Source of the DNA: Patescibacteria group bacterium
GTDB lineage: Bacteria > Patescibacteriota > UBA1384 > DATEAH01
Assembly (NCBI GenBank): GCA_035288465.1
Contig: DATEAH010000007.1
Coordinates: 66,090 to 130,089 of the forward strand
DNA: 64,000 nt
Reading direction: 5' to 3'
Under the pieces are notes generated by a model. That model saw only the letters and a program-made list of their open reading frames with translations, did no database searches and had not been told where the DNA came from. Below, piece after piece: positions 3,213 through 51,272 of the stretch. Positions within the stretch are counted from its first letter, which is position 1. Each line of letters opens with the position of its first letter. Both the position numbers and the translations under genes were made by a program.

Positions 3213-5048
3213 TTATAATAGAGAAACCGGATCAACCTCAATTTTGATATCTTTAGGTAAAACCTCTGGGACTGGCATAATTTTAGTACCTTTGAGGATT
3301 ATTTGCCAACAGAATTTTTCAGCTTTTTTGAATTTGAAACAAGGTGATGATCCCAAAATTTTAAGCGAAGAATCAGAATTTTGGATTTTTTCCACCAAAG
3401 ACATGGCCTTTTCTTCTAAGTGTTTTAGATTTGAATCAGTAAGGATTAGTCTGATTAATTTGCCAAATGGCGGGTAGCCGGATTTTTTTCGAGCTAATAA
3501 TTCTTGATGATAAAAAAGCTGATCTGAGTCGCGCAAAATTGCCTGATAAATTAAATGTTGCGGATAATGTGTCTGGACTAAAAATTCGTTTTTGGCATAA
3601 AGTTTCGCAATTTTTAGAAGCTGATAGGTTTTTTCAGCGGATTTAAAATCCGGCAAGTTTAAAGTTAAGTCTGGCTCAACTGCGACCACTAAATTAGCAG
3701 GTTGAAATATTTTAGAAAAGATTTGTTGTGTACCAATAATTAAATCGTATGACAGATTTTGTAAATTTATTTTTTCAAAATGATCGCTTTCTAAACGTAA
3801 AATTTTGGCTTCAGGTATTATTTTTTGAACTTCAGTGGCAACTTTTTCCGTACCGCCACCCAAAAAGCGTAAATTTGATCCTAAACAATTTGGGCATTGA
3901 TTAGTAATTTGTTGAAAATATTGGCAGTGATGGCAAATTAAAGCTTGGCTAACTTGACCATATTGGATTCGAAAAGTGAGGACTTTTTGGCATTTGGGGC
4001 AGCGAAAAATATGCTGGCAGTCGCGGCATAGTACCACTGAGGCTGAGCCCTTTTTATTAATAAATAAGATTGAAGTTTGGTGATTTCGAAAATTTTCAAT
4101 TATTTTTTGTTGAACAAGATCTGAGAGTAAGTTAAGGTTTTTATTTAAATATTCCAGATTCATATCAATTAGTTTGGTTTTAGGGGAAAAGGGGAGTTGG
4201 GGCTTGAGCCAGCTGATTTTTCGTTTTTTAATTTCCAGAAAATAATCTAAATTTAAACTTGGGGAATAAAAAAATAAATTGGCTTTTTGCAGTTGGCATA
4301 ATTGTTCAGCCACTCGCCTGGTGTCATATCTGGGAGAGCGGTCTTGTTTATAGGTTTGATTTTCTGCCCCATCAATAATAATTTGGCCCAAATTAGCCAA
4401 GGGCGTAAAAACCGCAATTTGTGAGCCGACCACGACTTTTGCCTTTTGCGATAAGATTTTTAAATAATTTTGCCATTTTTCGGAATTTGGAAGCTGTGAA
4501 TGATATAAAATTGTTTCGTTTTGAAGACGCTTTGGTAAATATTGATAAAATAATTTCGCGTTTTCAACGTCGCCAAATAACACAATTGATTGTTTATTTT
4601 TGGTTTGTGTTTTTTCAATTAGTTCTATAAATTTAATTAATTTAGTTTTAAAAATTAAGTCTTTATCAGTCAGCTTTTGGGGCTTTCTGAGGGTGGAAAT
4701 TTTGGCGCGAGGCTTTAAAACTGGTTTTGGCAATAGGGCAAAAATGACTTGGGAAAGAGGAACGTGGTAGTAATTTGAAATCCAAAGTGATAATTTTTTT
4801 AATTGAGTTGGAAATTCAAAATCCGAAACCACAATTTTCACAATGCTTTTAAGTTTTAAATTTTGAATTTTGAAAGATCTTTTTCTTTTTATATCAAAAA
4901 CCAAACCTAAAATCTTACGATTGCCAAAAGGAATTTTTACCAACGAACCTATTTTAACTTCTGGCAATAATGAGGCTGGAATTTTATATGTGAACAAGGT
5001 TTGTTTAAAATCAGTTTTAATATTTGGAACGATTTGGGCATACTGCAT
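3213..5048 (-). CDS. priA: primosomal protein N' (PriA)-like, with degenerate ATPase motifs
   Basis: 611 aa. PriA Cys-rich zinc region CRDCQHIFRCPKCQ..CHHCQY..CPNC is intact. The region aligning to Walker A reads GDVENAKL (GVTGSGKT in E. coli PriA) and the region aligning to motif II reads DGAENQTYKQ (DEEHDSSYKQ). About 30 aa after Walker A are missing. Confidence 0.75.
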   Translation of the reverse strand: MQYAQIVPNIKTDFKQTLFTYKIPASLLPEVKIGSLVKIPFGNRKILGLVFDIKRKRSFKIQNLKLKSIVKIVVSDFEFPTQLKKLSLWISNYYHVPLSQVIFALLPKPVLKPRAKISTLRKPQKLTDKDLIFKTKLIKFIELIEKTQTKNKQSIVLFGDVENAKLFYQYLPKRLQNETILYHSQLPNSEKWQNYLKILSQKAKVVVGSQIAVFTPLANLGQIIIDGAENQTYKQDRSPRYDTRRVAEQLCQLQKANLFFYSPSLNLDYFLEIKKRKISWLKPQLPFSPKTKLIDMNLEYLNKNLNLLSDLVQQKIIENFRNHQTSILFINKKGSASVVLCRDCQHIFRCPKCQKVLTFRIQYGQVSQALICHHCQYFQQITNQCPNCLGSNLRFLGGGTEKVATEVQKIIPEAKILRLESDHFEKINLQNLSYDLIIGTQQIFSKIFQPANLVVAVEPDLTLNLPDFKSAEKTYQLLKIAKLYAKNEFLVQTHYPQHLIYQAILRDSDQLFYHQELLARKKSGYPPFGKLIRLILTDSNLKHLEEKAMSLVEKIQNSDSSLKILGSSPCFKFKKAEKFCWQIILKGTKIMPVPEVLPKDIKIEVDPVSLL

Positions 5049-5065
5049 AAAAAATCCTTCGGATT

Positions 5066-5166
5066 TTTTTAAATCCTAAATTCAAATATCGAAATCCTAA
5101 ACAATATCAAAATTCAAATTTTCAAAATTGGAACTTATTTGAGATTTGTAATTTTGAATTTATAAT
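5066..5166. repeat. AT-rich intergenic inverted-repeat element, copy A of a five-copy family
   Basis: Begins aaatcctaaattcaaatatcgaaatcctaaacaa and ends with an inverted tttgaatttataattt-type arm. Shares the aaatcctaaat..cgaaa..ctaaaca motif with copies at 19.2, 20.3, 32.7 and 47.3 kb. Confidence 0.5.
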
Positions 5167-5688
5167 TTATTCCTCATGTCTTTTGACAGTGAATTTATAC
5201 AAAAATACGGGTTCACCTTCAATAATACCGGCTTTTTGGCTGGCAATGGCGATTTGTTGATTGGCGGAATCTACCCCGTCTAAATCTGGTAATAATAAAC
5301 CAGAACGACCATCAGCAGTTTTGACAATCACGCCATATTTTTTAGGATTTAGCTCACGATCGGGATTTTGAACTGGTTTTGGTGAGGATAAGACATCAAC
5401 TGAAATTTCGATACTTTTTAGTTCAGACAAAGTTACCGGTTCAAATCTGGGGTCGCTGGTGGCCGCAGCCACCGCGTTTTTGATAATTTCTTCGGCTAAA
5501 TTTGGTTGGGTGGCTAAGAAAGTGCCGATGCAACCTCGCAAATCATCATTTGATAAATGCAAACTGATAAAAGTCCCGGCGCGTTTGGTTAAGTTTTTTG
5601 GTAATGATTTTGGGGAATTTAAAAATTTGCCAGTTTTCAAATAATTATAAATTGATTTTCGAGCCAAGTTTGTATAAATATTTTTCAT
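5167..5688 (-). CDS. AMMECR1 domain protein (AmmeMemoRadiSam system protein A)
   Basis: 173 aa. Contains the conserved AMMECR1 motif LRGCIGT. Confidence 0.85.
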   Translation of the reverse strand: MKNIYTNLARKSIYNYLKTGKFLNSPKSLPKNLTKRAGTFISLHLSNDDLRGCIGTFLATQPNLAEEIIKNAVAAATSDPRFEPVTLSELKSIEISVDVLSSPKPVQNPDRELNPKKYGVIVKTADGRSGLLLPDLDGVDSANQQIAIASQKAGIIEGEPVFLYKFTVKRHEE

Positions 5689-5693
5689 ATAAT

Positions 5694-6509
5694 TTATTTA
5701 ATTTTAAATTCAACAACGGCATAACCGACGCCAAAGGGACATTCGTAGGAGAGTTTTTTAACTTGATATTTTAAATGGCTAATGGCACCCAATAAGATGA
5801 GGATTGAGCGATATCCACATTCACCAGCTTCATCTATAAATTCTTCGTCAAAATTTAAAATCTTAGTGACTTCATTTTTTTCAAGCGCTTTAATGAGCTG
5901 CTGGTCAAATTTTTTACCGAGGGTTGAATAACCGGCTGGAGATTGGGGTAAAAGCCGGTGGGACAAATCACCAGAGGCGATAATGGCAACCCTTTTGTTT
6001 TTGAGCTTTTCTAAAACATCGGCTAAGGCTTCACCAAAAGCAAAATGTGAATTTACATTTAAGTAAGAATAAGCGATTGGGACAACTTTTACATTTGTGA
6101 GGTGTTTGCAGATAAAATACAAAGGCACTAAACTGCCGTGGTCTAATTCAAAAGTGTTGTCCGGATTATCATTGGTATATAGCAGGGTTTCAATTCCTTC
6201 GGCATCAGCTTTGGCGTTAATTTCTTTGACAAGTTGCAGATCGTTTTCAAATTTGAATTTAATTTCCGGGTGGCCAAATTGAGAAAAATCGCCTTTTAAT
6301 TTTGGCATGCCACAAATATTCATCCGGTCAGGATAAACTAAACCATGTGGGGAAATTAAAATAATCGTTTCCGGATCGGTTTTATCCAAGTCTTGGCTAA
6401 ATTTTTCCATGGCGGCAATGGATTTTTGAACTTTTGTTGAGTCTGTTCCGCCAATTTCAGGAACCATAATCGGTGGATGTGGCGTTATCGCTGCGAAAAT
6501 TATTGACAT
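5694..6509 (-). CDS. MEMO1-family protein (AmmeMemoRadiSam system protein B)
   Basis: 271 aa. Class III extradiol-dioxygenase-like / Memo fold with His-rich sites PHPP..SPHG. Adjacent to the AMMECR1 gene. Confidence 0.8.
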   Translation of the reverse strand: MSIIFAAITPHPPIMVPEIGGTDSTKVQKSIAAMEKFSQDLDKTDPETIILISPHGLVYPDRMNICGMPKLKGDFSQFGHPEIKFKFENDLQLVKEINAKADAEGIETLLYTNDNPDNTFELDHGSLVPLYFICKHLTNVKVVPIAYSYLNVNSHFAFGEALADVLEKLKNKRVAIIASGDLSHRLLPQSPAGYSTLGKKFDQQLIKALEKNEVTKILNFDEEFIDEAGECGYRSILILLGAISHLKYQVKKLSYECPFGVGYAVVEFKIK

Positions 6510-6719: not shown

Positions 6720-7488
6720 GACATCAGAAACTGAAGGTTATCAACCAGGTGAAGAAGAAGTTCAAGCAGCCGAAGAAATGATGGATGATAAACAAAAGAG
6801 AGAGAGTATGGGAAGAGAACGGGACATGTTAGACGAAAAAAGGCTTGAGGAAGGAGAAAAAATTGGCGATCCAACTGAAATGTTAGTTGACCATTTCCAA
6901 ACCACGGCAGACAAAATGAAAGTAGAAGGGTTAGATAGTGATGCAAGAAGTGTTGAAAAATTAATAAGTATTTTTCAAAATTTTTCCAACAACGCAAAAA
7001 AAGAATACGAAAAGAAAAAATCCTTAGGACTTAATCCTGTTTGGCTGCGGGAGGATAAACGTTTAGCTATATTCTATAGCGGAAGAGGAATAGAGTTAGT
7101 AAATGTGCACAGAGGTGTTGATGTTTATGATGAATTGACAACGAAACGACAAAGCCCCGAACCTAAAACAACCATAGCTGGACCACTTGGTCGCTTATCT
7201 GAAAAGGGTTGGAAAATTTTTTACGAATCAACAGGTATTGATGAGAATTTAATGGAAATAAATAAAGAAGCATTTGATAAAAATTACAAATCAGCTAAAG
7301 ATAAACACAATTTTAGTGTGGAAACAGAAGAATCTACAAATATTCCTGGTGTAAGATTAAGAGCTCGATCTAATGGTGCTAATTTTAACACAGAATACTA
7401 CATTTCTTATAGTGAAGATTCGGTTCGTATATTATTTGATAATACTTTTATGAACCGAATGCGAAATAGAAGCGAAAGAGAAAAATAA
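6720..7488 (+). CDS. hypothetical acidic protein, 256 aa from an RBS-supported ATG (the ORF track extends to 6598)
   Basis: RBS gggaggaaaa precedes the ATG at 6720. No recognisable domain. GC content is visibly higher than the flanks. Inserted inside the AmmeMemoRadiSam gene triad. Confidence 0.5.
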
Positions 7489-7550
7489 TTATTGTACGAG
7501 CTAGTTTATTAACTCTTGATAATTTACTAAATAAAATAATGAAGGTTTAT

Positions 7551-7671: not shown

Positions 7672-8001
7672 ATGGCCTTAGAAAAAAAAGATTTTGAACA
7701 AATTGAAAAAATTGTCAATAAAACCGAATCTCGGTTAGAGAAGAAAATTGGTGCGACGGAAACCCATCTGGAAAAGAAAATTACTTCCACAGAAACTGGT
7801 CTGGAAGAAAAAATTGGTTCTATAAAAACTCATCTGGAAGAAAAAATTGAAGATTCTGAAAATAGAATTATTTCTGTTTTGAGCCGGGAAATCACTGATT
7901 TAGCGGAAATTAACCGAGCCGTAATTGAGAGAGTGGATCAAATTGCTGAATTAGAAAAACGTATTATCCACATTGAACATAAAATCGGAATCACCACTTG
8001 A
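7672..8001 (+). CDS. small coiled-coil protein with ~11-aa (33-nt) tandem repeats
   Basis: RBS aagggag precedes the ATG at 7672. Repeats ETHLEKKI / ETGLEEKI / KTHLEEKI. Bracketed by the 53-nt direct repeats. Confidence 0.45.
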   Translation: MALEKKDFEQIEKIVNKTESRLEKKIGATETHLEKKITSTETGLEEKIGSIKTHLEEKIEDSENRIISVLSREITDLAEINRAVIERVDQIAELEKRIIHIEHKIGITT

Positions 8002-42773: not shown

Positions 42774-45512
42774 ATGGCATTTCTACAGTTTTTAGTCGGA
42801 GACCAAAACAAAAAAGAAATTAATCGCTTAGAAAAAATCGTGGTTGAAATTAATGCTTTGGAATCTGAAACTGAAAAATGCTCCAACCCTGAGCTTAAAA
42901 AAGAAACTCAAAAATTAAAAGATGAAATTGCCGAATTTCAAAAAACTCACCAATTACCCTTGGGAAGTTTGGCTGAACTAGATAAAACCGAAGTTAAAAG
43001 AATTCAAAAAAAAGAACAAGAAATATTAAACCAAATTTTACCAAAAGCGGCCGCCTTGGTTCGAGAAGCGGCCAAAAGAACTATCAAACAACGGCATTTT
43101 GATGTTCAGTTAATAGGTGGGATAGTTTTGCATACTGGGAAAGTCGCAGAAATGAAAACTGGTGAAGGAAAAACTTTGGCGGCGACTATGCCTCTCTTTT
43201 TGAATGCCTTAGCGGGACATGGGGCGCATTTGGTGACCGTGAATGATTTTTTGGCCAAAAGAGACGCCCAATGGATGGGCCCAATTTATCATTTATTGGG
43301 ATTATCAGTGGCCTGTATCCAACACGAAAAATCATATTTATTCGAACTGACTTCTGACAAAGTGGAATTTGGGGAAGAATTTAACCTTAAAGCCTGCACC
43401 CGTCGGGAAGCCTACGCGGCAGATATTACCTATGGCACTAATAATGAATTTGGCTTTGATTATTTAAGAGATAATATGGTTTCTAATATGTCTCAATGCG
43501 TGCAACGGGAACTTTATTTTGGAATTGTGGATGAGGTAGACTCAATTTTAATCGATGAAGCCCGCACACCTTTAATTATTTCTGCACCAGCAGAAGAATC
43601 AACGGAATTATATCAGCGTTTTGCTCGTTTTGTGCCAAGCCTTAATAAAGAAACGGATTATAGCGTTGATGAAAAAATGCAATCAGTGATGTTAACTGAT
43701 GAAGGCATGAAAAAAACCGAGCGTTTTTTGGGCGTGAAAAACCTTTACCAAGAAGGTGGAGTAATGTTGGTTCACCATCTGGAAGAAGCCTTAAAAGCTC
43801 ACGTTTTATTTAAAAAAGACAAAGATTATGTGGTTAAAGAAGGCGAAATTGTGATTGTTGATCAATTTACGGGCCGTTTGATGCCGGGTCGTCGCTATTC
43901 TGAAGGTTTACACCAGGCGATTGAGGCTAAAGAAAATGTGGAAATTAAGAGAGAGTCTGTGACCTTGGCGACAATTTCGTTTCAAAATTATTTTAGAATG
44001 TATGGCAAGTTGGCAGGAATGACTGGTACCGCCAAAACCGAAGAAGAGGAATTTTTCAAAATTTATGGTTTAGAGGTGATCGTGGTGCCAGCGAATAAAC
44101 CGATGGTTCGTGCTGACTTAGCAGATCGAATATATCGGACCGAAGAAGGTAAATTTCAAGCGGTGGTTGAGGAAATTCGTCAACGCCATGAAAAAGGTCA
44201 GCCAGTTTTGGTGGGAACAATTGCGATTGAAAAATCAGAAGTCTTATCGCAAATGTTACGGCGCGAAGGAGTTAAGCATAATGTTTTAAATGCCAAATTT
44301 CACGAAAAAGAAGCTAAAATTATTGCCCAGGCGGGTCGGGTTGGAGCGGTGACAGTGGCAACTAATATGGCGGGTCGTGGTGTGGATATTATTTTAGGCG
44401 GAAGTCCTGCCGAACCTGCAGAACAAAAGAAAGTGTGCAAGGCAGGCGGTTTGCATGTTTTGGGAACTGAACGTCACGAGGCGCGCCGAATCGATAATCA
44501 GTTGAGAGGTCGATCTGGTCGGCAGGGCGATCCGGGATCATCGCAATTTTATGTTTCTATGGAAGATGATTTGATGAGAATTTTTGGCGGGGATCGCATT
44601 AAAAGAATTATGGAAGTCTTAAAAGTACCCGAAGACCAACCCGTGGAAAATAAATTAATTTCCAGATCATTAGAATCATCTCAAAAACGAGTCGAAGGCT
44701 ATAACTTTGATTTGCGCAAACATTTGGTTGAATATGATGATGTGATGAATAAGCATCGGGAAACGATATATCGCCTTCGCAAAAAAATCTTAACTCATCA
44801 GGATTTGCGATCGGAAATTTTAGAAATCGTGGTCGAATATTTTCGACGCTTAGCCCAAATGCATGGGGCTGGCAATAAGGAAGTTTGGAATTTAGAGGAA
44901 ATTGTTAAAAACTTAAAAGCGGTATTAGGTGTAAATTATTCAGATGATGTTGAAAAGCATCTTTTAAAACTTGAGACCGAAGCACAAATTGAAGATTATT
45001 TGGTTAAATTAGCGGGAATTATTTTTGAGGAAAAAGAAAAATCTCTAACTCCAGAAGTGATGCGTCAAGTCGAAAAAGCAATCTATTTGCGAACTATTGA
45101 TGCCCTGTGGATAGAACATTTAACCAATATGGAGGAGTTGCGTGAAGGAATTGGCTTGCGCGGAATTGGACAACGCGATCCTCTTGTCGAATACAAGCGA
45201 GAAGCTTATAATATGTTTGAGGGTTTATTAGCAGATATTGAAACAAATGCGATAAATATGATTTTTAGGACCGAGGTGGAAGCAGCTCCGCAAAATTTAA
45301 GCGAAAGACCGGCTCGTCAAATGACAATGAGCGGCGCGAGCGAAACGGCGGCAGCGGGAACTTTTTCAGGATATAACCAAGAAAGCATGATGGAAAAAGA
45401 AGCGGCAACTCGATCTGAAACTGTTGTCAAATCTGAAAAAGTTGGTCGCAATGATCCTTGTCCGTGTAATTCTGGCAAAAAATACAAAAAATGTCATGGC
45501 CGCTTTGCTTAA
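42774..45512 (+). CDS. secA: preprotein translocase ATPase SecA
   Basis: About 912 aa from MAFLQF. DEAD-like motor (GEGKTL, VDEVDSILIDEARTPLIIS, ATNMAGRGVDI). C-terminal zinc motif CPCNSGKKYKKCHG. Confidence 0.95.
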   Translation: MAFLQFLVGDQNKKEINRLEKIVVEINALESETEKCSNPELKKETQKLKDEIAEFQKTHQLPLGSLAELDKTEVKRIQKKEQEILNQILPKAAALVREAAKRTIKQRHFDVQLIGGIVLHTGKVAEMKTGEGKTLAATMPLFLNALAGHGAHLVTVNDFLAKRDAQWMGPIYHLLGLSVACIQHEKSYLFELTSDKVEFGEEFNLKACTRREAYAADITYGTNNEFGFDYLRDNMVSNMSQCVQRELYFGIVDEVDSILIDEARTPLIISAPAEESTELYQRFARFVPSLNKETDYSVDEKMQSVMLTDEGMKKTERFLGVKNLYQEGGVMLVHHLEEALKAHVLFKKDKDYVVKEGEIVIVDQFTGRLMPGRRYSEGLHQAIEAKENVEIKRESVTLATISFQNYFRMYGKLAGMTGTAKTEEEEFFKIYGLEVIVVPANKPMVRADLADRIYRTEEGKFQAVVEEIRQRHEKGQPVLVGTIAIEKSEVLSQMLRREGVKHNVLNAKFHEKEAKIIAQAGRVGAVTVATNMAGRGVDIILGGSPAEPAEQKKVCKAGGLHVLGTERHEARRIDNQLRGRSGRQGDPGSSQFYVSMEDDLMRIFGGDRIKRIMEVLKVPEDQPVENKLISRSLESSQKRVEGYNFDLRKHLVEYDDVMNKHRETIYRLRKKILTHQDLRSEILEIVVEYFRRLAQMHGAGNKEVWNLEEIVKNLKAVLGVNYSDDVEKHLLKLETEAQIEDYLVKLAGIIFEEKEKSLTPEVMRQVEKAIYLRTIDALWIEHLTNMEELREGIGLRGIGQRDPLVEYKREAYNMFEGLLADIETNAINMIFRTEVEAAPQNLSERPARQMTMSGASETAAAGTFSGYNQESMMEKEAATRSETVVKSEKVGRNDPCPCNSGKKYKKCHGRFA

Positions 45513-45540
45513 TTTGCATAAAATGAAATTATAAGGAGGT

Positions 45541-46227
45541 TTGTTGATCGAATTTAGACACGTCTCAAAAATATACAAAAGTGATAAAAAGGCTTTGGAT
45601 GACGTGTCTTTTAAGATTCCCAAAAAAGAATTTGTATGTTTGGTGGGACCGTCTGGAGCAGGCAAGTCAACCTTAATCAAAATGCTAATTTGTGACGAGA
45701 AACCAAGTTCGGGAAAAATTTTAATCGGCGGATTTAATATCACGAATTTGAAACCGGCGGAAATCCCCTATTTTCGTCGTAAAATTGGCGTTGTTTTTCA
45801 AGACTATAAATTACTTTCCGATAAAAATGTTTTTGAAAATATCGCTTTTGCGCTTGAAGTTTGCGGCGCATCCGACGCGGAAATTCGTAAAAAAGTTCCC
45901 CGAGCCTTAAAATTGGTAGGGTTAGAAAAATGTCTTCAAAATTTTCCTGATGAATTATCTGGTGGCGAAAAGCAACGCGTTTCAATCGCAAGAGCTTTAA
46001 TCCACAGCCCAAAATTACTCATTGCTGATGAGCCGACCGGAAATTTAGACCCCAAAACTGCCTGGGAAATTATTAAATTGCTTTTAAGAATTAATGAATT
46101 TCAAGGGACAATAATTCTATTAGCTACCCATCATAAAGAAATCGTGGATCGTTTAAAAAAACGGGTGATCACTGTCAAAAATGGTAAATTAGTTTCTGAT
46201 CAACAAGAAGGTAAATACATAATATAG
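45541..46227 (+). CDS. ftsE: cell division ATP-binding protein FtsE
   Basis: 228 aa. Walker A GPSGAGKST, ABC signature LSGGEKQRVSIARAL, Walker B LLIADEPTGNLD. TTG start. Confidence 0.9.
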   Translation: MLIEFRHVSKIYKSDKKALDDVSFKIPKKEFVCLVGPSGAGKSTLIKMLICDEKPSSGKILIGGFNITNLKPAEIPYFRRKIGVVFQDYKLLSDKNVFENIAFALEVCGASDAEIRKKVPRALKLVGLEKCLQNFPDELSGGEKQRVSIARALIHSPKLLIADEPTGNLDPKTAWEIIKLLLRINEFQGTIILLATHHKEIVDRLKKRVITVKNGKLVSDQQEGKYII

Positions 46228-46273
46228 CGACTAAATTTTTTAATTTTAATAAATTTGAATTAGAGGATAAAAA

Positions 46274-47209
46274 ATGCAACAAGTGACTGGAACTACGGCT
46301 CTTTCGAGAGTTTTCAAGTGGAGTATTTTGAGTTTTTGGCGAAACCGCTTATTGTCAATTGCGGCCACCCTAGTAATGACTCTAACGCTTTTGACGATTT
46401 CATTATTTGTAATTTTGAATTTAATTATTGGTACGACTGTTGACGTGGTACAACATAAAATTGACCTGGTGGTGTATTTAACTGAATCTGCGACCGAGGC
46501 AGATATTACAAATCTTAAAACTCAAGTAGAACAAATGCCTGAAGTTGCCTCAGTAAATTATATTGATAAAGCTCAAGCTTTGGCAAAGTGGCAATCAAAA
46601 GAAATAAAAGATGAGCTAAAAAATATTGCTACCACCGCTGACAACCCTTTGCCTCGCAGTTTGGAAATTAAAGTCAAAGATTTAACCAAACTTGAACAAA
46701 CCGCCACCTTTTTTGAATCCGCAGAAGTTAAACCTTTGGTGGATAAAACCACCATGCACGAGAATCGGGCGACGATTAATCGATTATTAAAAACTACCCG
46801 TTTCTTTCGCATTAGCGGGATAATTTTTTCAGCATTTTTCGTTTTAATTTCTTTATTGGTTATTTTTAACACGATTCGTTTAGCAATATATAGCCGTCGC
46901 GACGAGATTGACATTATGAAATTAGTGGGCGCCACCAGCTCGGCGATTCGTTGGCCTTTTATAGTTGAAGGGATGTTTTATGGATTATTGGCAACAGTAA
47001 TATCGGTGATTTTGCTCTTTGTGGGTTTTAGATTTTTATCACCAGTAGTAAATAAATATTTAGGCGAGTTAATGACTGAATGGGGTGGCAGTTTGATGAA
47101 TTATTTTATTGCTAATTTGTGGCAAATTATTTTATGGCAATTATTGGTGGGATTCGCGATTGGCGCCGCTTGCAGTTTCTTGGCAATCAGAAAACACCTT
47201 AAAGTGTAG
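46274..47209 (+). CDS. ftsX: cell division permease FtsX
   Basis: 311 aa. N-terminal TM, periplasmic domain and a C-terminal 3-TM FtsX domain. Follows ftsE. Confidence 0.8.
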   Translation: MQQVTGTTALSRVFKWSILSFWRNRLLSIAATLVMTLTLLTISLFVILNLIIGTTVDVVQHKIDLVVYLTESATEADITNLKTQVEQMPEVASVNYIDKAQALAKWQSKEIKDELKNIATTADNPLPRSLEIKVKDLTKLEQTATFFESAEVKPLVDKTTMHENRATINRLLKTTRFFRISGIIFSAFFVLISLLVIFNTIRLAIYSRRDEIDIMKLVGATSSAIRWPFIVEGMFYGLLATVISVILLFVGFRFLSPVVNKYLGELMTEWGGSLMNYFIANLWQIILWQLLVGFAIGAACSFLAIRKHLKV

Positions 47210-47295
47210 AGAGGTGAGACAGAGATTTGAGACAAAGACTTGGGGAAGGAGGGCTTGAAATATTTTTATAAATTTGGTATAATAGATATTAAAGA

Positions 47296-47405
47296 AAATC
47301 ATAAATCCTAAATCCGAAATTCTAAACAAATTACAATTCCAAAATTATAAATCACAAACAGGTATTGTTTAGAGTTTAGTGCTTAGAAATTAGAATTTAT
47401 AAATA
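47296..47405. repeat. AT-rich intergenic inverted-repeat element, copy D
   Basis: aaatcataaatcctaaatccgaaattctaaacaaat ... caaacaggtattgtttagagtttagtgcttagaaattagaattt. The 29-mer is identical to copy C. The arms are imperfect reverse complements. Confidence 0.55.
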
Positions 47406-47416
47406 TTGAGGGGCAA

Positions 47417-48628
47417 ATGCTCTTGAAGAATTTTTTGACAAAAACTATGCAAACTATGAGCAAAATTGTGCTTTATGTTTTTCTCATAGTTTTTTTATTT
47501 CCGCAATATACTGCTGCAGATTCAATTCAGGATAAACAAAGAGAACTGCAGAATATTCAATCTCAAATTGATCAGCAGCAAAAGCTCTTAAATCAAAAAT
47601 CCGGCGAAAGAAGAACCTTGGCAGGTCAAGTTTCATCAATGGATGCGCAAATCAGACAGACTCAACTCTCAATTAATAAAACGCAGACTGAAATTGATTT
47701 AGCGCAGGTTGAAATTACTAAACTTAATACACAAATTGCTCAAAAGGAAAAAGAATTAAAACGTCAAAAACAAATTCTCAACGAAGCCTTGAGAGTAATT
47801 TATCAAGAAACTGACACCAGTTTTATTGAAATGCTATTTTCTTCTAATAATATTTCGCAGGTTTTGGACCAAACTGAATATTTGGGGGCAGTTGAAGGCA
47901 AAATCGAAAATACAATGGCAGAAATCAAACAAGTAAAGTCTGCCCTTGCAACTGATAAAAAAGAGCAGGAAACTAAAAAAACCCAATTGGCTGAGAAAAA
48001 AGATGAATTAAAAATAAAAGAGTCAGGTCTAAGCGGGCAAAGAAATACGCGGAATGGTTTACTGGTTGAGACAAGAGGTCAAGAGTTTGCATACCAACAA
48101 TTATTGTCACAGAGACAAATAGAATGGGAGAGATCCAACGCCGAACTGAAACGTATGGAAGCTGCTTTGTATTCGGGTGGTCCTGATAGTGGACCTGGTT
48201 ATAGTGTCCCAAATTGGCCGATGTATGGAAGAATAAGTGTCCCATATGGGGCTTGTGGGTGTGATGCATATTTTTGTGGTAAATGCCATACGGGCATAGA
48301 TATTGTTGCCAGCCCCTATACTTCAGTTAGAGCAGCAAAAGACGGGGTTGTTAAAGATACAGTTAACTCTTGCCGTGATTCTGTTGGAGATTATGGTTGT
48401 GGTGGAGGATATGGTAATCGGGTTATAATTGAACATAATGATGGTCATGTTTCAATATATGGACATTTAAGTCAGGGTTCTGTGAGGGTAAGAGTGGGGA
48501 CTAGAGTTTCTGGAGGAAAAACGGTGATTGGCTCAGAGGGTAATAGTGGTTTCTCAACCGATTTTCATCTCCATTTTGAAATTAGGAATAGGATGTGGGG
48601 ATCATCTGTAAGACCATTACTACCATAA
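47417..48628 (+). CDS. M23-family peptidase with an N-terminal coiled coil (EnvC-like, FtsEX partner)
   Basis: 403 aa. Signal/TM, a long Q-rich coiled coil and a LytM domain with HTGIDI and HLHFEI motifs plus a Cys-rich insert. Confidence 0.8.
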   Translation: MLLKNFLTKTMQTMSKIVLYVFLIVFLFPQYTAADSIQDKQRELQNIQSQIDQQQKLLNQKSGERRTLAGQVSSMDAQIRQTQLSINKTQTEIDLAQVEITKLNTQIAQKEKELKRQKQILNEALRVIYQETDTSFIEMLFSSNNISQVLDQTEYLGAVEGKIENTMAEIKQVKSALATDKKEQETKKTQLAEKKDELKIKESGLSGQRNTRNGLLVETRGQEFAYQQLLSQRQIEWERSNAELKRMEAALYSGGPDSGPGYSVPNWPMYGRISVPYGACGCDAYFCGKCHTGIDIVASPYTSVRAAKDGVVKDTVNSCRDSVGDYGCGGGYGNRVIIEHNDGHVSIYGHLSQGSVRVRVGTRVSGGKTVIGSEGNSGFSTDFHLHFEIRNRMWGSSVRPLLP

Positions 48629-48696
48629 ATTTAAATATTAATTAAAAATGAATTTAAAAAAGAGGGGCAAAAACCTTTGGTTTGTGTTTTAAGTTA

Positions 48697-48725
48697 TTGA
48701 CAAAATTTGATTTTTATCATAAAAT
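48697..48725 (+). promoter_or_regulatory. near-consensus sigma70 promoter TTGACA-N17-TAAAAT
   Basis: ttgaca (48697-48702), an exactly 17-nt spacer, then taaaat (48720-48725). Predicted TSS ~48732, at the start of the hairpin-rich leader of the RT cassette. Confidence 0.55.
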
Positions 48726-48730
48726 AAAAT

Positions 48731-48975
48731 TACTCGAATTATATTTGAGTAGTGCGCAACGCACTAAAGTTGGTGTTTTTTCGCCTCCAAAATTTCTTGC
48801 CGTTTGTTACTACTACTCAACTGCGAAAATGGAGTTATGGATTATGTGATTTAAGATAATAATATTCAAAATTATTTTAATGATCAACTCACGAATTTGA
48901 AGTATGCATGGAACTGCTTTTGCCATAATCAGCCTTTAACTGCACCTCCTTTTATTAAGGCAAGAAAGGAGGTTT
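48731..48975 (+). ncRNA. candidate structured non-coding RNA / leader upstream of the reverse transcriptase (possible retron msr-msd-like region)
   Basis: No ORF. Perfect hairpins tactcga..ttgagta, gtgcg-caa-cgcac and aactc..gagtt. A long-range complement cctcc..ttcttgcc (48784-48801) pairs with ggcaagaa.ggagg (48958-48974). A 9-bp hairpin acctccttt/aaaggaggt lies at 48944-48972. Confidence 0.4.
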
Positions 48976-49098
48976 ATGAAAATTAAACTAAAAGGCTGGT
49001 TGAAAAGGTCTGGAATGATTCTCGATTTAGTTGCTAAATTATTAGCAGTGATCAAAGTCATAAAGGACCTTTTAGGGTACCGATTAATGCCCTCATGA
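48976..49098 (+). CDS. 40-aa small ORF (amphipathic helix peptide) between the leader and the RT
   Basis: RBS aaaggagg precedes the ATG. Encodes MKIKLKGWLKRSGMILDLVAKLLAVIKVIKDLLGYRLMPS. Its stop codon sits in the hairpin ccctc-atgaa-gaggg that also carries the RT RBS. Confidence 0.3.
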   Translation: MKIKLKGWLKRSGMILDLVAKLLAVIKVIKDLLGYRLMPS

Positions 49099-49111
49099 AG
49101 AGGGATTAAAT

Positions 49112-50014
49112 ATGAAATTGCAACCCATACGTTCTCAAAAAGATTTAAATGATATTTTTGATATTAACGATCAAAAAATTATTAGTCTTATTAAGCTAAA
49201 AAATAAATATAAAAAGCGATCTATCCCGAAAAAATCTGGTGGAATAAGGGTAATAACGGAGCCCGCACCCGAATTGAAATCTTTCCAAAAAAAGCTGGGT
49301 AGCTATATTTTTCGTATGAAAAAATTAAAATTCGCTTATGGTGGCGTGAAGAATAAATGCCGAGAAGATGTCGCTAAACTTCACAGATGTAATTATTTTA
49401 TTCTTAAATGTGATATTAAAAATTGTTTCCCTTCGATTAGAAAAAAAGTAGTGGTTAAAGAATTGTTGAACTTTGGTTTTACATATAAATACGCTAAATT
49501 GTTCACAGAAATAATAACTTTTGAAGGATCTCTTCCTCAGGGTGCACCTTCAAGTCCGGGCATGGCGAATTTAATATTAGATAAGATTGATAATCAAATT
49601 ATAACTGTACTACCGTTTGGCTGTAAATATTCCCGATGGATTGATGACATTATGATTTCATTTCCGAAAAAAAATCAACTAAAAATAATTAAAGACATAT
49701 CGAAAAAAATTGAGAATATAATTCATTCTAATGGTTTAAATCTGAAAGATGGGGTTTCTATTATCCTCAAGGAGCATTGCAGCGATTTACTTGGGCAATC
49801 AATATCTAAGAAGATTAATATTCCTAAAAAATGGTATAAAATTTTACGGAGTCAAGTTTATAGACTTAAAAGGGGATTTTATAAAGGTAAAGAACAAGAA
49901 AAAATAATAGCTTTAATCAAAGGTAAAATGGTATTATTAAAAAGTGTTACCGTCCATCACAAAAAACAAACTAGATATTATACGCTTAAGAAAATACTTG
50001 ATAAAATTATGTGA
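49112..50014 (+). CDS. reverse transcriptase, compact retron-type (no maturase or endonuclease domains)
   Basis: 300 aa. RT motif 1-2 KKSGGIRVITEP, motif A LKCDIKNCFPSI (D101), motif B' LPQGAPSSPGMANLIL, motif C RWIDDIMIS (W-x-DD variant). Retron-like thumb segment LLGQSISKKINIPKKWYKILRSQVY. Ends with TGA. Confidence 0.8.
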   Translation: MKLQPIRSQKDLNDIFDINDQKIISLIKLKNKYKKRSIPKKSGGIRVITEPAPELKSFQKKLGSYIFRMKKLKFAYGGVKNKCREDVAKLHRCNYFILKCDIKNCFPSIRKKVVVKELLNFGFTYKYAKLFTEIITFEGSLPQGAPSSPGMANLILDKIDNQIITVLPFGCKYSRWIDDIMISFPKKNQLKIIKDISKKIENIIHSNGLNLKDGVSIILKEHCSDLLGQSISKKINIPKKWYKILRSQVYRLKRGFYKGKEQEKIIALIKGKMVLLKSVTVHHKKQTRYYTLKKILDKIM

Positions 50015-50069
50015 CAAGCATTTTTTTAAAATTTGCCTAAAAATTAGTTTTGAGTTATAATAATAGGCA

Positions 50070-51272
50070 TTGGAGGAGAAATTGAAGTTTAGAAAAATAC
50101 TCTTGCCTATTATTTTTGTTTTGAGCCTAGGAATTTTTTATTTTCTGGGCTATTTACATGGTCACGCGAATTTAGTTTTTTCGAAAAAATTTGTCCCGCA
50201 AATTACTAATACGGAATTGGGCAAACCCAAAGATATCGATTTTTCGCTTTTTTGGGAGGTTTGGAATAAGGTTGAAGATCAATATCCGGGCAAGGTGGAT
50301 CGCAAGAAAATATTTTATGGCGCAATTTCTGGAATTTTGACAGGTTTAGATGACCCATACTCAGTTTTTATGGAGCCTGGCCAATCAAAAACATTTTTAA
50401 ATGATTTAGAGGGTATTTTTGATGGCATTGGTGTCGAAATTACGATGAAAAATAACCAAATTACGATAGTTTCCGCCCTAAAAGATACTCCCGCTTCAAA
50501 AGCTGGTTTGATGGCAAATGATATAATTTTAAAAATAGATGGCAAAGAAACGACAAACATGACGTTGGATGAAGTGGTAAATAAAATTAGAGGTGTGAAA
50601 GGAACCAAGGTAACCTTAACAATTTATCGGAATGGCAAACAAAAAGATTATACTGTGACTAGAGATAAAATTAAGGTTGAAAGTGTTAAATATGAATTTA
50701 AGGATAGTAATATCGCCTATATCAAAATTGACCAATTTGGTGATGACACCGAAGATTTATTCAACAAAGCCATCTCTGAAATCCAGCTGAAAAAACCCAA
50801 AGGAATAATTTTAGATTTAAGGGATAATCCGGGTGGATATTTAGAAACTTCAGTTAATATCGCCAGCGCCTTTATTAAAAACGGCGTGATTGTTTCTGAA
50901 CAATACAAAGGTGACAAAAAAGATGAATATAAATCAACCGGCGACGGCAGATTAGAAGGTTATAAATTAGTAGTTTTGGTTAACGGCGGTTCGGCCTCAG
51001 CTTCGGAAATTGTCGCTGGCGCGATACAAGATTTAGGCAAAGGCAAATTAATTGGCGAAAAAACCTTTGGCAAGGGTTCTGTTCAAGAACTGGAAGCTTT
51101 AAAAGATGAGGCATATTTGAGATTAACGGTGGCGAAGTGGTTGACGCCAAAAGGTAGATACATTAATTCATCGGGTATTGAACCCGATATTGTGGTTGAA
51201 ATGACCCAAAAAGATATTGACGCTGATCGAGATCCGCAATTAGATCGCGCATTATCAGAAATTAAAAAATAG
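50070..51272 (+). CDS. ctpA: carboxyl-terminal processing protease (S41, CtpA)
   Basis: 400 aa. PDZ domain and the S41 catalytic region GGSASASEIVAGAIQD ... K. TTG start. Confidence 0.9.
   Translation: MEEKLKFRKILLPIIFVLSLGIFYFLGYLHGHANLVFSKKFVPQITNTELGKPKDIDFSLFWEVWNKVEDQYPGKVDRKKIFYGAISGILTGLDDPYSVFMEPGQSKTFLNDLEGIFDGIGVEITMKNNQITIVSALKDTPASKAGLMANDIILKIDGKETTNMTLDEVVNKIRGVKGTKVTLTIYRNGKQKDYTVTRDKIKVESVKYEFKDSNIAYIKIDQFGDDTEDLFNKAISEIQLKKPKGIILDLRDNPGGYLETSVNIASAFIKNGVIVSEQYKGDKKDEYKSTGDGRLEGYKLVVLVNGGSASASEIVAGAIQDLGKGKLIGEKTFGKGSVQELEALKDEAYLRLTVAKWLTPKGRYINSSGIEPDIVVEMTQKDIDADRDPQLDRALSEIKK

Follow-up and report, generated by a model that had tools for sequence, protein, structure and literature searches.

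Type VI retrons combine a structured non-coding RNA (ncRNA), a small protein (SP) and a reverse transcriptase (RT), and their SP has been shown to act as a toxin in Retron-Vpa2 and Retron-Sen3 (10.1101/2025.10.22.683967; 10.64898/2026.04.27.721009). In Retron-Vpa2, a hybrid RNA (hyRNA) of ~470 nt holds both msr-msd and the SP coding sequence, the ribosome-binding site (RBS) of the SP is sequestered, and derepression of SP translation needs multicopy single-stranded DNA (msDNA) to accumulate; a helix-turn-helix protein (HTH) binds the RT and the hyRNA (10.1101/2025.10.22.683967). In Retron-Sen3, the ncRNA lies at most ~280 nt from the SP start and the SP RBS falls in its basal stem, and a census of 158 Type VI entries reports an HTH in ~78% of them, with ~22% lacking one (10.64898/2026.04.27.721009). 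Here we describe an RT cassette at ~48697-50014 of a 64,000-nucleotide stretch of DNA (hereafter the window) from a Patescibacteria group bacterium (assembly GCA_035288465.1, contig DATEAH010000007.1, positions 66,090 to 130,089, forward strand), which we hold, with moderate confidence, to be a self-contained, horizontally acquired retron of Type VI design that has been reduced to two genes. A preliminary description of this DNA had considered such a module unexpected in Patescibacteria and had called it a candidate minimal or novel RT-based system. The expectation is contradicted by the published census, which includes a Type VI entry from Candidatus Levybacteria (10.64898/2026.04.27.721009). 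The novelty was overstated, since the design is that of a known retron and the nearest RTs lie in small protein-HTH-RT operons, while the idea of a minimal variant is supported.

As in Type VI retrons, a structured ncRNA, an SP gene and an RT gene follow one another in the cassette on what would be one transcript, a hybrid RNA, with the ncRNA within ~280 nt of the SP start. The features are given below in window coordinates, and comparison loci elsewhere are numbered with the prefix L.

48697..48725, + strand: sigma-70-like promoter, TTGACA-17-TAAAAT (11/12 match), with a predicted transcription start at ~48732.
48732..48750, + strand: HP1, a 5' hairpin ACUCGAAU-UAU-AUUUGAGU, conserved in structure and variable in sequence.
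48751..48765, + strand: HP2, a stem-loop AGUGCG-nnn-CGCACU, whose stem is the same in the window, L001, L008 and L010, whereas its 3-nt loop varies.
48766..48775, + strand: a1-like 5' inverted repeat AAAGUUGGUG, which pairs with a2 in four loci.
48783..48801, + strand: anti-Shine-Dalgarno (anti-SD) strand GCCUCC-AAAA-UUUCUUGCC, with predicted long-range pairing to the Shine-Dalgarno (SD) block of the small open reading frame (ORF).
48846..48886, + strand: central AT-rich hairpin inside a1..a2, a candidate msd (template) stem.
48943..48953, + strand: a2-like 3' inverted repeat CACCUCCUUUU (CACCAACUUU in other members), which also pairs locally with the SD.
48959..48972, + strand: conserved block GGCAnGAAAGGAGG with the small-ORF SD, found in five loci.
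48976..49098, + strand: SP gene, 40 aa, MKIKLKGWLKRSGMILDLVAKLLAVIKVIKDLLGYRLMPS, NCBI HLC39046.1, annotated as a hypothetical protein.
49090..49104, + strand: GC hairpin CCCUC-AUGAA-GAGGG at the SP/RT junction, whose 3' arm overlaps the RT RBS.
49112..50014, + strand: retron-type RT, 300 aa, RT domain only, NCBI HLC39047.1.

The RT ORF contains, in order, KKSGGIRVITEP, LKCDIKNCFPSI, LPQGAPSSPG, RWIDD and LLGQSISKKINIPKKWYKILRSQVY, and every motif that the preliminary description had quoted for this 300-aa ORF is thereby accounted for. RWIDD is the catalytic motif, and LLG stands where VTG would be expected. Pfam identified RVT_1 alone in the window RT (2.5e-19, residues 38-213), with no maturase, endonuclease or RNase H domain, as had been described. 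Its top 25 PADLOC matches are all retron RT models (1.7e-46 to 4e-27), led by RT_II-A (1.7e-46) and RT_VI (2.9e-46), and the top PADLOC matches of the other four RTs of its family are likewise all retron RT models. Models of defence-associated RTs (DRT) and group II introns scored much lower than the retron models on the window RT, and its sequence matches in the PDB are the retron RTs Ec67, Ec86, Kva2, Ec78 and Ec83. On the evidence of these profile and sequence matches, the window RT belongs to the retron or retron-like RT class; the profile placement that the preliminary description had proposed therefore agrees with its assignment to the retron type.

The family of this RT is very small. 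A word-indexed search of 5.8 billion proteins returned, besides a fragment of 99% identity, a single close relative of full length, P0002 (60% identity); P0059, P0060 and P0061 (E 1e-74 to 1e-60) came from an exhaustive HMMER search that covered 1.84 billion cluster representatives. P0002 and these three are the only proteins with E <=1e-60 in the HMMER search, a result confirmed in a second search, and after them E drops sharply to 1e-32, the level at which generic retron RTs begin to appear in their thousands. In a total of ~15 billion proteins, the family comprises five clusters at 50% identity. Genome contigs scanned with the single RT and a two-sequence alignment contained no relative other than a 27% identical Lysinibacillus match, metagenome contigs yielded only a chimeric contig and an Ec67-like RT-Toprim, viral contigs held only distant RTs (25-29% identity), and tblastn against plasmids gave no match above 31% identity. 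In all five family RTs, RW(I/V)DD replaces YADD and LG(L/Q)(S/T)I occupies the usual VTG site, so the canonical retron motifs YADD, VTG and NAxxH are not encountered, the NAxxH site being DVAKLH-like. The highest PADLOC score of any member is 163 bits, with II-A, III-A, VI, XI and XII tied, and neighbouring RTs reach 190-446 bits on the same retron models. PADLOC cannot assign a retron type here, since its models give broad cross-matches and the family lies outside every one of them. In a simple neighbour-joining (NJ) tree, the family is monophyletic in 100/100 bootstraps and sits on a long branch. Its sequences thus make it a divergent outlier within the retron RT class.

Such divergence would also be compatible with a decaying or domesticated remnant, or with an RT of another kind, be it a degraded group II intron, a diversity-generating retroelement (DGR) or an Abi/UG-type system. 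The low PADLOC scores fit this reading, as do NCBIfam matches that all fall under their cut-offs (135 bits versus 235 for the retron models on the window RT, a wide shortfall), and the a1/a2 pairing of the window is weakened. However, all five RT ORFs are intact, retain the catalytic DD and are under purifying selection, and no polymorphism was seen across nine copies of the cassette compared from population contigs, neither of which suits a remnant. Searched against Rfam with permissive thresholds, 48400-50300 matched neither a retron msr nor a group II intron nor any other family, and the only matches were chance ones of the CRISPR-DR (CRISPR direct repeat) kind (E >0.03). The missing Rfam match could be taken as a further sign of a remnant, yet the absence of an intron RNA, together with that of a maturase domain, speaks against a group II intron. 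A DGR is disfavoured by the lack of a typical template/variable repeat pair at the locus, and non-retron RTs in general by top profile matches that are all to retrons. We regard a remnant or a non-retron RT as very improbable.

The catalytic motif instead links the family to a restricted set of retron RTs. Among 274 non-family retron RT matches, YADD is present in 193 and VTG in 194, whereas W(V/I)DD occurs in just 22, all without VTG and 290-331 aa long; among the collected RTs, the combination of RW(V/I)DD with no VTG is shared by the family only with these ~22 short RTs. The best non-family match to the family profile, P0207 (1.1e-37), is one of the 22. All three W(V/I)DD loci that were examined (L027, L028 and L029, encoding P0207, P0224 and P0254, the nearest non-family RTs by profile score) are small protein-HTH-RT operons in defence-island contexts, with RTs of 291-306 aa, small proteins of 75-80 aa and an HTH_3 protein of 97-124 aa whose gene abuts or overlaps the RT start. 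Similarly to the family, L027 and L028 combine in their leaders a stem-loop with a 5' repeat A(A/C)GUUG(G/A) and a complementary 3' repeat, which sits 2-3 nt 5' of the SP SD, and in L027 an anti-SD comes after the 5' repeat; the L029 leader shows a related arrangement by eye, while a pattern search gave no match. Unlike the family, these operons have the HTH_3 gene between SP and RT and an SP of 75-80 aa, and the identity of their RTs to those of the family is merely ~25%. In L027 (2270-2908) and L028 (3888-4547), a DNA_pol_B_exo2-like gene of 212-219 aa overlaps the RT stop codon and may be a fourth component of the operon, one that is absent from the Type VI descriptions consulted; L029 is without this gene and adjoins Thoeris ThsB/ThsA genes.

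Full leaders are available in four loci (the window, L001, L008 and L010). The unit shared by every member locus consists, in order, of the promoter (seen in these four), an AGUGCGnnnCGCACU stem-loop, AAAGUUGGUG...CACCAACUUU, GGCAnGAAAGGAGG, an ORF of 40-50 aa, the GC hairpin and the RT; AGUGCGnnnCGCACUAAAGUUGG is a further leader motif of the family besides GGCAnGAAAGGAGG. The consensus promoter of the preliminary description lies at 48697-48725 as listed, and L001, L008 and L010 have an equivalent promoter at the same distance 5' of the conserved hairpins, with diverged spacers. The ORF-free, hairpin-rich leader of ~350 nt that had been described is indeed a conserved structured RNA, but its length up to the small ORF is ~245 nt when counted from the predicted transcription start, or 348 nt when counted from the M23 peptidase stop, and the stability of its fold is only modestly above that of shuffled sequences (z = -1.8 for the window leader, -3.1 for L001). 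We do not count the other leader ORFs (55, 35, 37 and 41 aa) as genes, since between loci they resemble one another only within the HP2/a1 nucleotide block and their frames are unconserved.

The 5' part of this RNA resembles a retron ncRNA in its order of elements. A hairpin at the HP1 position appears in the individual folds of all four full leaders (ACUCAAAGUUGAGU in L001, ACUUGCUAAGCAAGU in L008, weaker in L010), and HP2 abuts a1 in 4/4. The inverted repeats AAAGUUGGUG / CACCAACUUU and their terminal G are conserved in the four loci, and the isolated a1..a2 segment closes with the a1/a2 stem in each of them (-9.4 to -12.8 kcal/mol for the duplex), with one compensatory change from G-C to A-U, two wobble changes and 4/40 cells mismatched; the conserved terminal G of a1 is a candidate priming guanosine. 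Between a1 and a2, the leader interior is variable (150-175 nt) and holds the central hairpin, which begins UGAU(A)UUAAGAU in three loci (window, L001 and L010), has 3' arms that are non-alignable, and could serve as the msd stem. A conserved 7-nt direct repeat of the kind shared by the msd region and riboregulator of Vpa2 was sought, and only locus-specific 7-10-mers were found, none of them cross-locus.

The SD of the SP is predicted to be paired within the ncRNA, as in Type VI retrons. The anti-SD sits 5-15 nt downstream of a1, its duplex with the SD has -15.6 to -27.1 kcal/mol in the four loci, and this duplex forms the basal stem of the minimum free energy (MFE) structure in three of them (window, L001 and L008). 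The one variable nucleotide of GGCAnGAAAGGAGG covaries with its anti-SD partner (U-A, C-G, G-C), all pairs being Watson-Crick. The pairing probability of the SD is 0.93-1.0 in the window, L001 and L008, and in L010 five of its seven nucleotides are paired (0.93-1.0) while the two central ones are unpaired. In addition, a2 can pair locally with the SD in 5/5 loci, as a hairpin with -10.8 to -15 kcal/mol, and in the window two substitutions in a2 (CACCUCCUUU versus CACCAACUUU) give a perfect a2/SD hairpin of 9-10 bp, by which the window element may have shifted to tighter translational repression, or to a loss of priming. A further hairpin, at the SP/RT junction, is conserved across the five loci and shows compensatory changes at two of its pairs (CCCUC/GAGGG versus GCCCC/GGGGC); it passes terminator criteria in L008 and L010 and fails them in the window, L001 and L012. 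The SP stop codon lies in the loop of this hairpin in the window, and across the loci it is found in, next to or beyond the hairpin, or overlapping the RT start.

The 40-aa ORF ahead of the RT had been noticed before, together with the statement that no recognisable effector gene is adjacent. We found the ORF where it had been reported, and the statement no longer holds, as a homologous ORF of 45-50 aa occupies the same place, the toxin position of Type VI, in L001, L008, L010 and L012, and purifying selection acts on it. When the window and L001 are compared, the SP differs by nine synonymous codon changes with an excess at third positions, and the other two frames contain stops; dN/dS (Nei-Gojobori) is 0.31 over codons 1-37 and 0.14 in the core, compared with at least 1.2 in the other frames, and the SP dN of 0.29 equals that of the RT (0.30). 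The five SPs are 26-50% identical; their common features are an N-terminus of basic character, an amphipathic segment rich in I/L/V with LL(N/G)(Y/W) at its end, a net charge of +5 to +7, a maximal hydrophobic moment of 0.45-0.70 and a maximal 19-residue Kyte-Doolittle hydropathy of 1.2-1.9. AlphaFold models the window SP as a single helix over residues 4-37 (mean pLDDT 78). The codon pattern indicates that the SP ORF is a real gene under purifying selection, and by analogy with Type VI it is probably an effector or toxin.

The cassette could also be a genuine retron that lacks a dedicated effector. In that case the small ORF would serve only for regulation, as a leader, or for coupling: its translation would open the junction hairpin and set RT expression, and its peptide would be functionless. 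In all loci the SP stop either overlaps the RT start or is located within or beside the hairpin masking the RT RBS, as would be expected of such an ORF, and the peptide is very short, with N- and C-terminal ends that are unconserved. Pure coupling, however, would leave unexplained the low dN/dS of the peptide core (0.14-0.31 versus at least 1.2 in other frames), and it does not need the cationic amphipathic-helix pattern that has been kept at 26-50% identity. Moreover, the masking of the SD is elaborate and conserved, which suggests that the product must be kept off. We consider a functionless coupling ORF unlikely.

The surroundings of the cassette point to its mobility. In the window, it lies between housekeeping genes, as had been described, with an M23 peptidase and ftsE, ftsX and secA upstream and an S41/PDZ CtpA and L9 downstream, and its GC content of 29.4%, against a window mean of 36.9%, makes it the lowest-GC segment of 1.44 kb in the whole window, in agreement with the earlier remark on its AT-richness. 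The preliminary description had proposed comparing the envC-ctpA junction in relatives, and three of them (L022, L025 and L026, with CtpA 61-71% identical) lack the cassette: they have the gene order secA-ftsE-ftsX-hydrolase-ctpA-rplI-...-lemA-htpX, with a gap between hydrolase and ctpA of 61-73 nt versus 1,441 nt in the window. Because this gap is so short at the empty sites, the cassette is an insertion, as had been surmised for an inserted ncRNA and RT module, and from this comparison we conclude that it was inserted horizontally between housekeeping genes. An identical M23 peptidase occurs on 24 contigs from several samples, and every one of those shown that is long enough has the cassette at the same place; no empty site was found among contigs with the identical M23, the empty sites being those of more distant relatives. 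The more distant CtpA homologues bear Berkelbacteria names.

Elsewhere, the cassette is found in different company. The RT is near a DnaG-like gene and a secreted protein in L001, near unannotated genes in L010, in a restriction-modification / PD-(D/E)XK / PLD island in L008, and by a type II restriction-enzyme homologue in L011 and L012. The cassette thus occurs in five unrelated contexts, two of them beside restriction systems, with no flanking gene common to them; no conserved third gene accompanies it in the five loci, the neighbours all differing, and no HTH gene is present between SP and RT or among the immediate neighbours (window, L001, L008, L010, L011/L012). DNA homology between the window and L001 begins just 5' of or at the promoter, continues to the RT stop and then vanishes.

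These contexts bear on a reading in which the SP is a partner of the RT, an antitoxin or a regulator that has replaced the HTH, with the effector function residing elsewhere, in a host factor, or in the msDNA/RT complex. The HTH is indeed missing, and in Type VI it is the HTH that binds the RT and the hyRNA (10.1101/2025.10.22.683967); the SP, in turn, is without similarity to SPs of the Type VI style. But the five loci share no third gene, a single helix of 40 aa as modelled has no DNA-binding fold, and both the position of the SP gene and the sequestration of its RBS are those of the SP toxin and not of the HTH (10.64898/2026.04.27.721009). An SP in the role of partner seems to us quite unlikely.

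Some smaller observations concern these loci. At the M23-ctpA junction of L024 (1230-2363; CtpA 72% identical), there are two unrelated ORFs of 104 and 184 aa, the latter with a weak HEPN/Csx1-like PADLOC match (6e-5), and defence or toxin-antitoxin cargo may have a small hotspot at this junction. The hydrolase after ftsEX is M23 in the window (47417-48628) and in L024, while the syntenic L022 (2435-3613), L025 (3767-4939) and L026 have a CHAP-domain protein of similar length in its place. L001 contains an ORF of 43 aa (MRYILYARKSTESEERQILSIESQ..., 712-843) ~1.4 kb upstream of its cassette, which appears to resemble the N-terminus of serine recombinases and which we take to be possibly a mobile-element remnant. 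In L010, an ORF of 74 aa on the minus strand (7277-7501) diverges from the retron promoter, has no Pfam match, is not conserved in the other loci and gives a weak PADLOC match to mad1 of the MADS system (5.6e-5). The called RT start of L010 (8001) is probably 36 nt too far downstream: the N-terminus read from an in-frame ATG at 7965 (MKIFPVKSQKQL...) fits the other members, and with this start the beginning of the RT lies within the small ORF. Finally, L002/L003 (JGI Ga0209002_10014713) is 100% identical to window positions 45331-49687, its breakpoint at 49687 falling inside the RT, and is flanked by unrelated GC-rich DNA (positions 1-201) and, past the breakpoint (positions 4559-5808), by an unrelated AT-rich ORF of 374 aa with no Pfam match. 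The apparently truncated RT of 194 aa at this locus (P0001) was considered as a case of decay and rejected: both contig ends are unrelated, so that the truncation arises because L002/L003 is probably a chimeric assembly.

We propose that the cassette works as a retron of Type VI design in the following way. One promoter would give a single RNA that comprises the ~245-nt structured retron ncRNA, the SP mRNA and then the RT, with the ncRNA presenting, in order, two 5' hairpins, the a1/a2-like inverted repeat and an internal template hairpin. In the resting state, the SD of the SP would be held by the long-range anti-SD 3' of a1 or, alternatively, by a2, and because the SD is predicted to lie in RNA duplexes, translation of the SP would be repressed. 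By analogy with Retron-Vpa2, reverse transcription or the accumulation of msDNA, for example during phage infection, would let a1 engage a2, the anti-SD would be consumed as template or titrated, the freed SD would allow the SP to be made, and the SP would arrest or kill the cell, resulting in abortive infection. As the SP stop and the RT RBS share one hairpin, translation of the SP should raise that of the RT, a possible positive feedback that could stand in for HTH control. By analogy with the described systems, we postulate synthesis of msDNA, priming by the G, toxicity of the SP, the trigger and also the feedback.

The likeness to Type VI retrons extends to the proteins, as both have a small helical SP with a hydrophobic or amphipathic segment and a short RT (~290-310 aa). 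There are also differences. The Cro/C1-type HTH of Type VI (91-124 aa), which is a repressor or antitoxin in both studied systems, is missing from the family loci; the SP has 40-50 aa and a single predicted helix, as opposed to 55-80 aa and two or three helices; and the distance from transcription start to junction hairpin is ~370 nt, compared with ~470 nt for the Vpa2 hyRNA. Type I toxin-antitoxin systems such as hok/sok and tisB/istR encode tiny cationic or hydrophobic helical peptides whose SD is held in a long-range 5'-3' RNA structure, and in their mRNA the SD is freed for translation by a processing or unfolding event. The cassette resembles them in its very small helical peptide with a predictedly masked SD, and differs in that no antisense RNA gene is evident, the repressor would be the retron ncRNA in cis, and an RT is included. 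A single RT clade comprises the retrons of Types IV, V and VI (10.64898/2026.04.27.721009), and in Type IV the effector gene lies downstream of or overlaps the RT and encodes two transmembrane helices (PMC7736814). With Type IV retrons, typified by Ec48, the cassette shares the two-protein composition and a small effector, here a putative one, predicted to act at the membrane, whereas its peptide is encoded upstream, has one helix and has its RBS embedded in the ncRNA; the RT_IV model is not among the top PADLOC matches of the family RTs.

Several observations weigh against the reading of the cassette as a reduced Type VI retron. Its RT is not assigned with good support to the monophyletic Type VI lineage (RT clade 3): on PADLOC RT_VI, the family scores 105-156 bits, not above II-A, III-A, XI or XII, and the position of the family beside the small protein-HTH-RT clade in the NJ tree has <40% bootstrap. 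The tie on RT_VI says little, because the RTs of canonical small protein-HTH-RT operons themselves reach ~200 bits on this model, tied with other types. Comparison of the family SP profile with the 75-80-aa SPs by hhalign detected no similarity (probability 0.07), and the published HTH control of Type VI cannot apply as such, because no HTH is adjacent in the five loci. As regards the RNA, a1 and a2 of the window form 8/10 pairs, with two mismatches that stem from the a2 substitutions, and the covariation comes from only 4-5 sequences. The elements follow one another as a1, anti-SD, a2 and SD, so that the a1/a2 and anti-SD/SD helices cross and must therefore represent alternative states or a pseudoknot. 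Lastly, six Type VI retrons, including that of Levybacteria, gave no detectable reverse-transcribed DNA (RT-DNA) in E. coli (10.64898/2026.04.27.721009). The Levybacteria ncRNA of the census shows no resemblance by eye to the motifs of the family.

In its design, the cassette follows Type VI retrons, a type already catalogued in Patescibacteria, and is not categorically new. What appears new, from the sequences compared, is that none of the five loci has an HTH, that the peptide is roughly half as long as usual and has no homology that could be detected, that the RT lineage is isolated and comprises five clusters only, and that the total length is ~1.35 kb. A bolder proposal, which we put forward tentatively and consider doubtful, is that this one RNA with its two proteins constitutes the smallest complete retron defence module known, with a 40-aa cationic helical peptide as toxin, encoded on the RNA that also carries the RT template, and that control by RNA alone, through the mutually exclusive a1/a2, a2/SD and anti-SD/SD pairings and a translational SP-RT coupling with positive feedback, replaces the HTH. 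Were this true, the cassette, with its isolated RW(I/V)DD lineage, would merit a new retron subtype or type, and the hybrid-RNA principle would work without a protein antitoxin or repressor. If functional, the cassette would be a Type VI hybrid-RNA retron stripped to a template RNA, a masked toxin mRNA and an RT, offering a tractable minimal system for the coupling of reverse transcription to translational derepression of a toxin and a test of whether the HTH component is dispensable. Its small size would be of interest to retron-based genome editing only if RT-DNA is made. Carried as mobile cargo in a reduced Patescibacteria genome, this rare RT lineage bears on how ultra-small episymbiotic bacteria may defend themselves.

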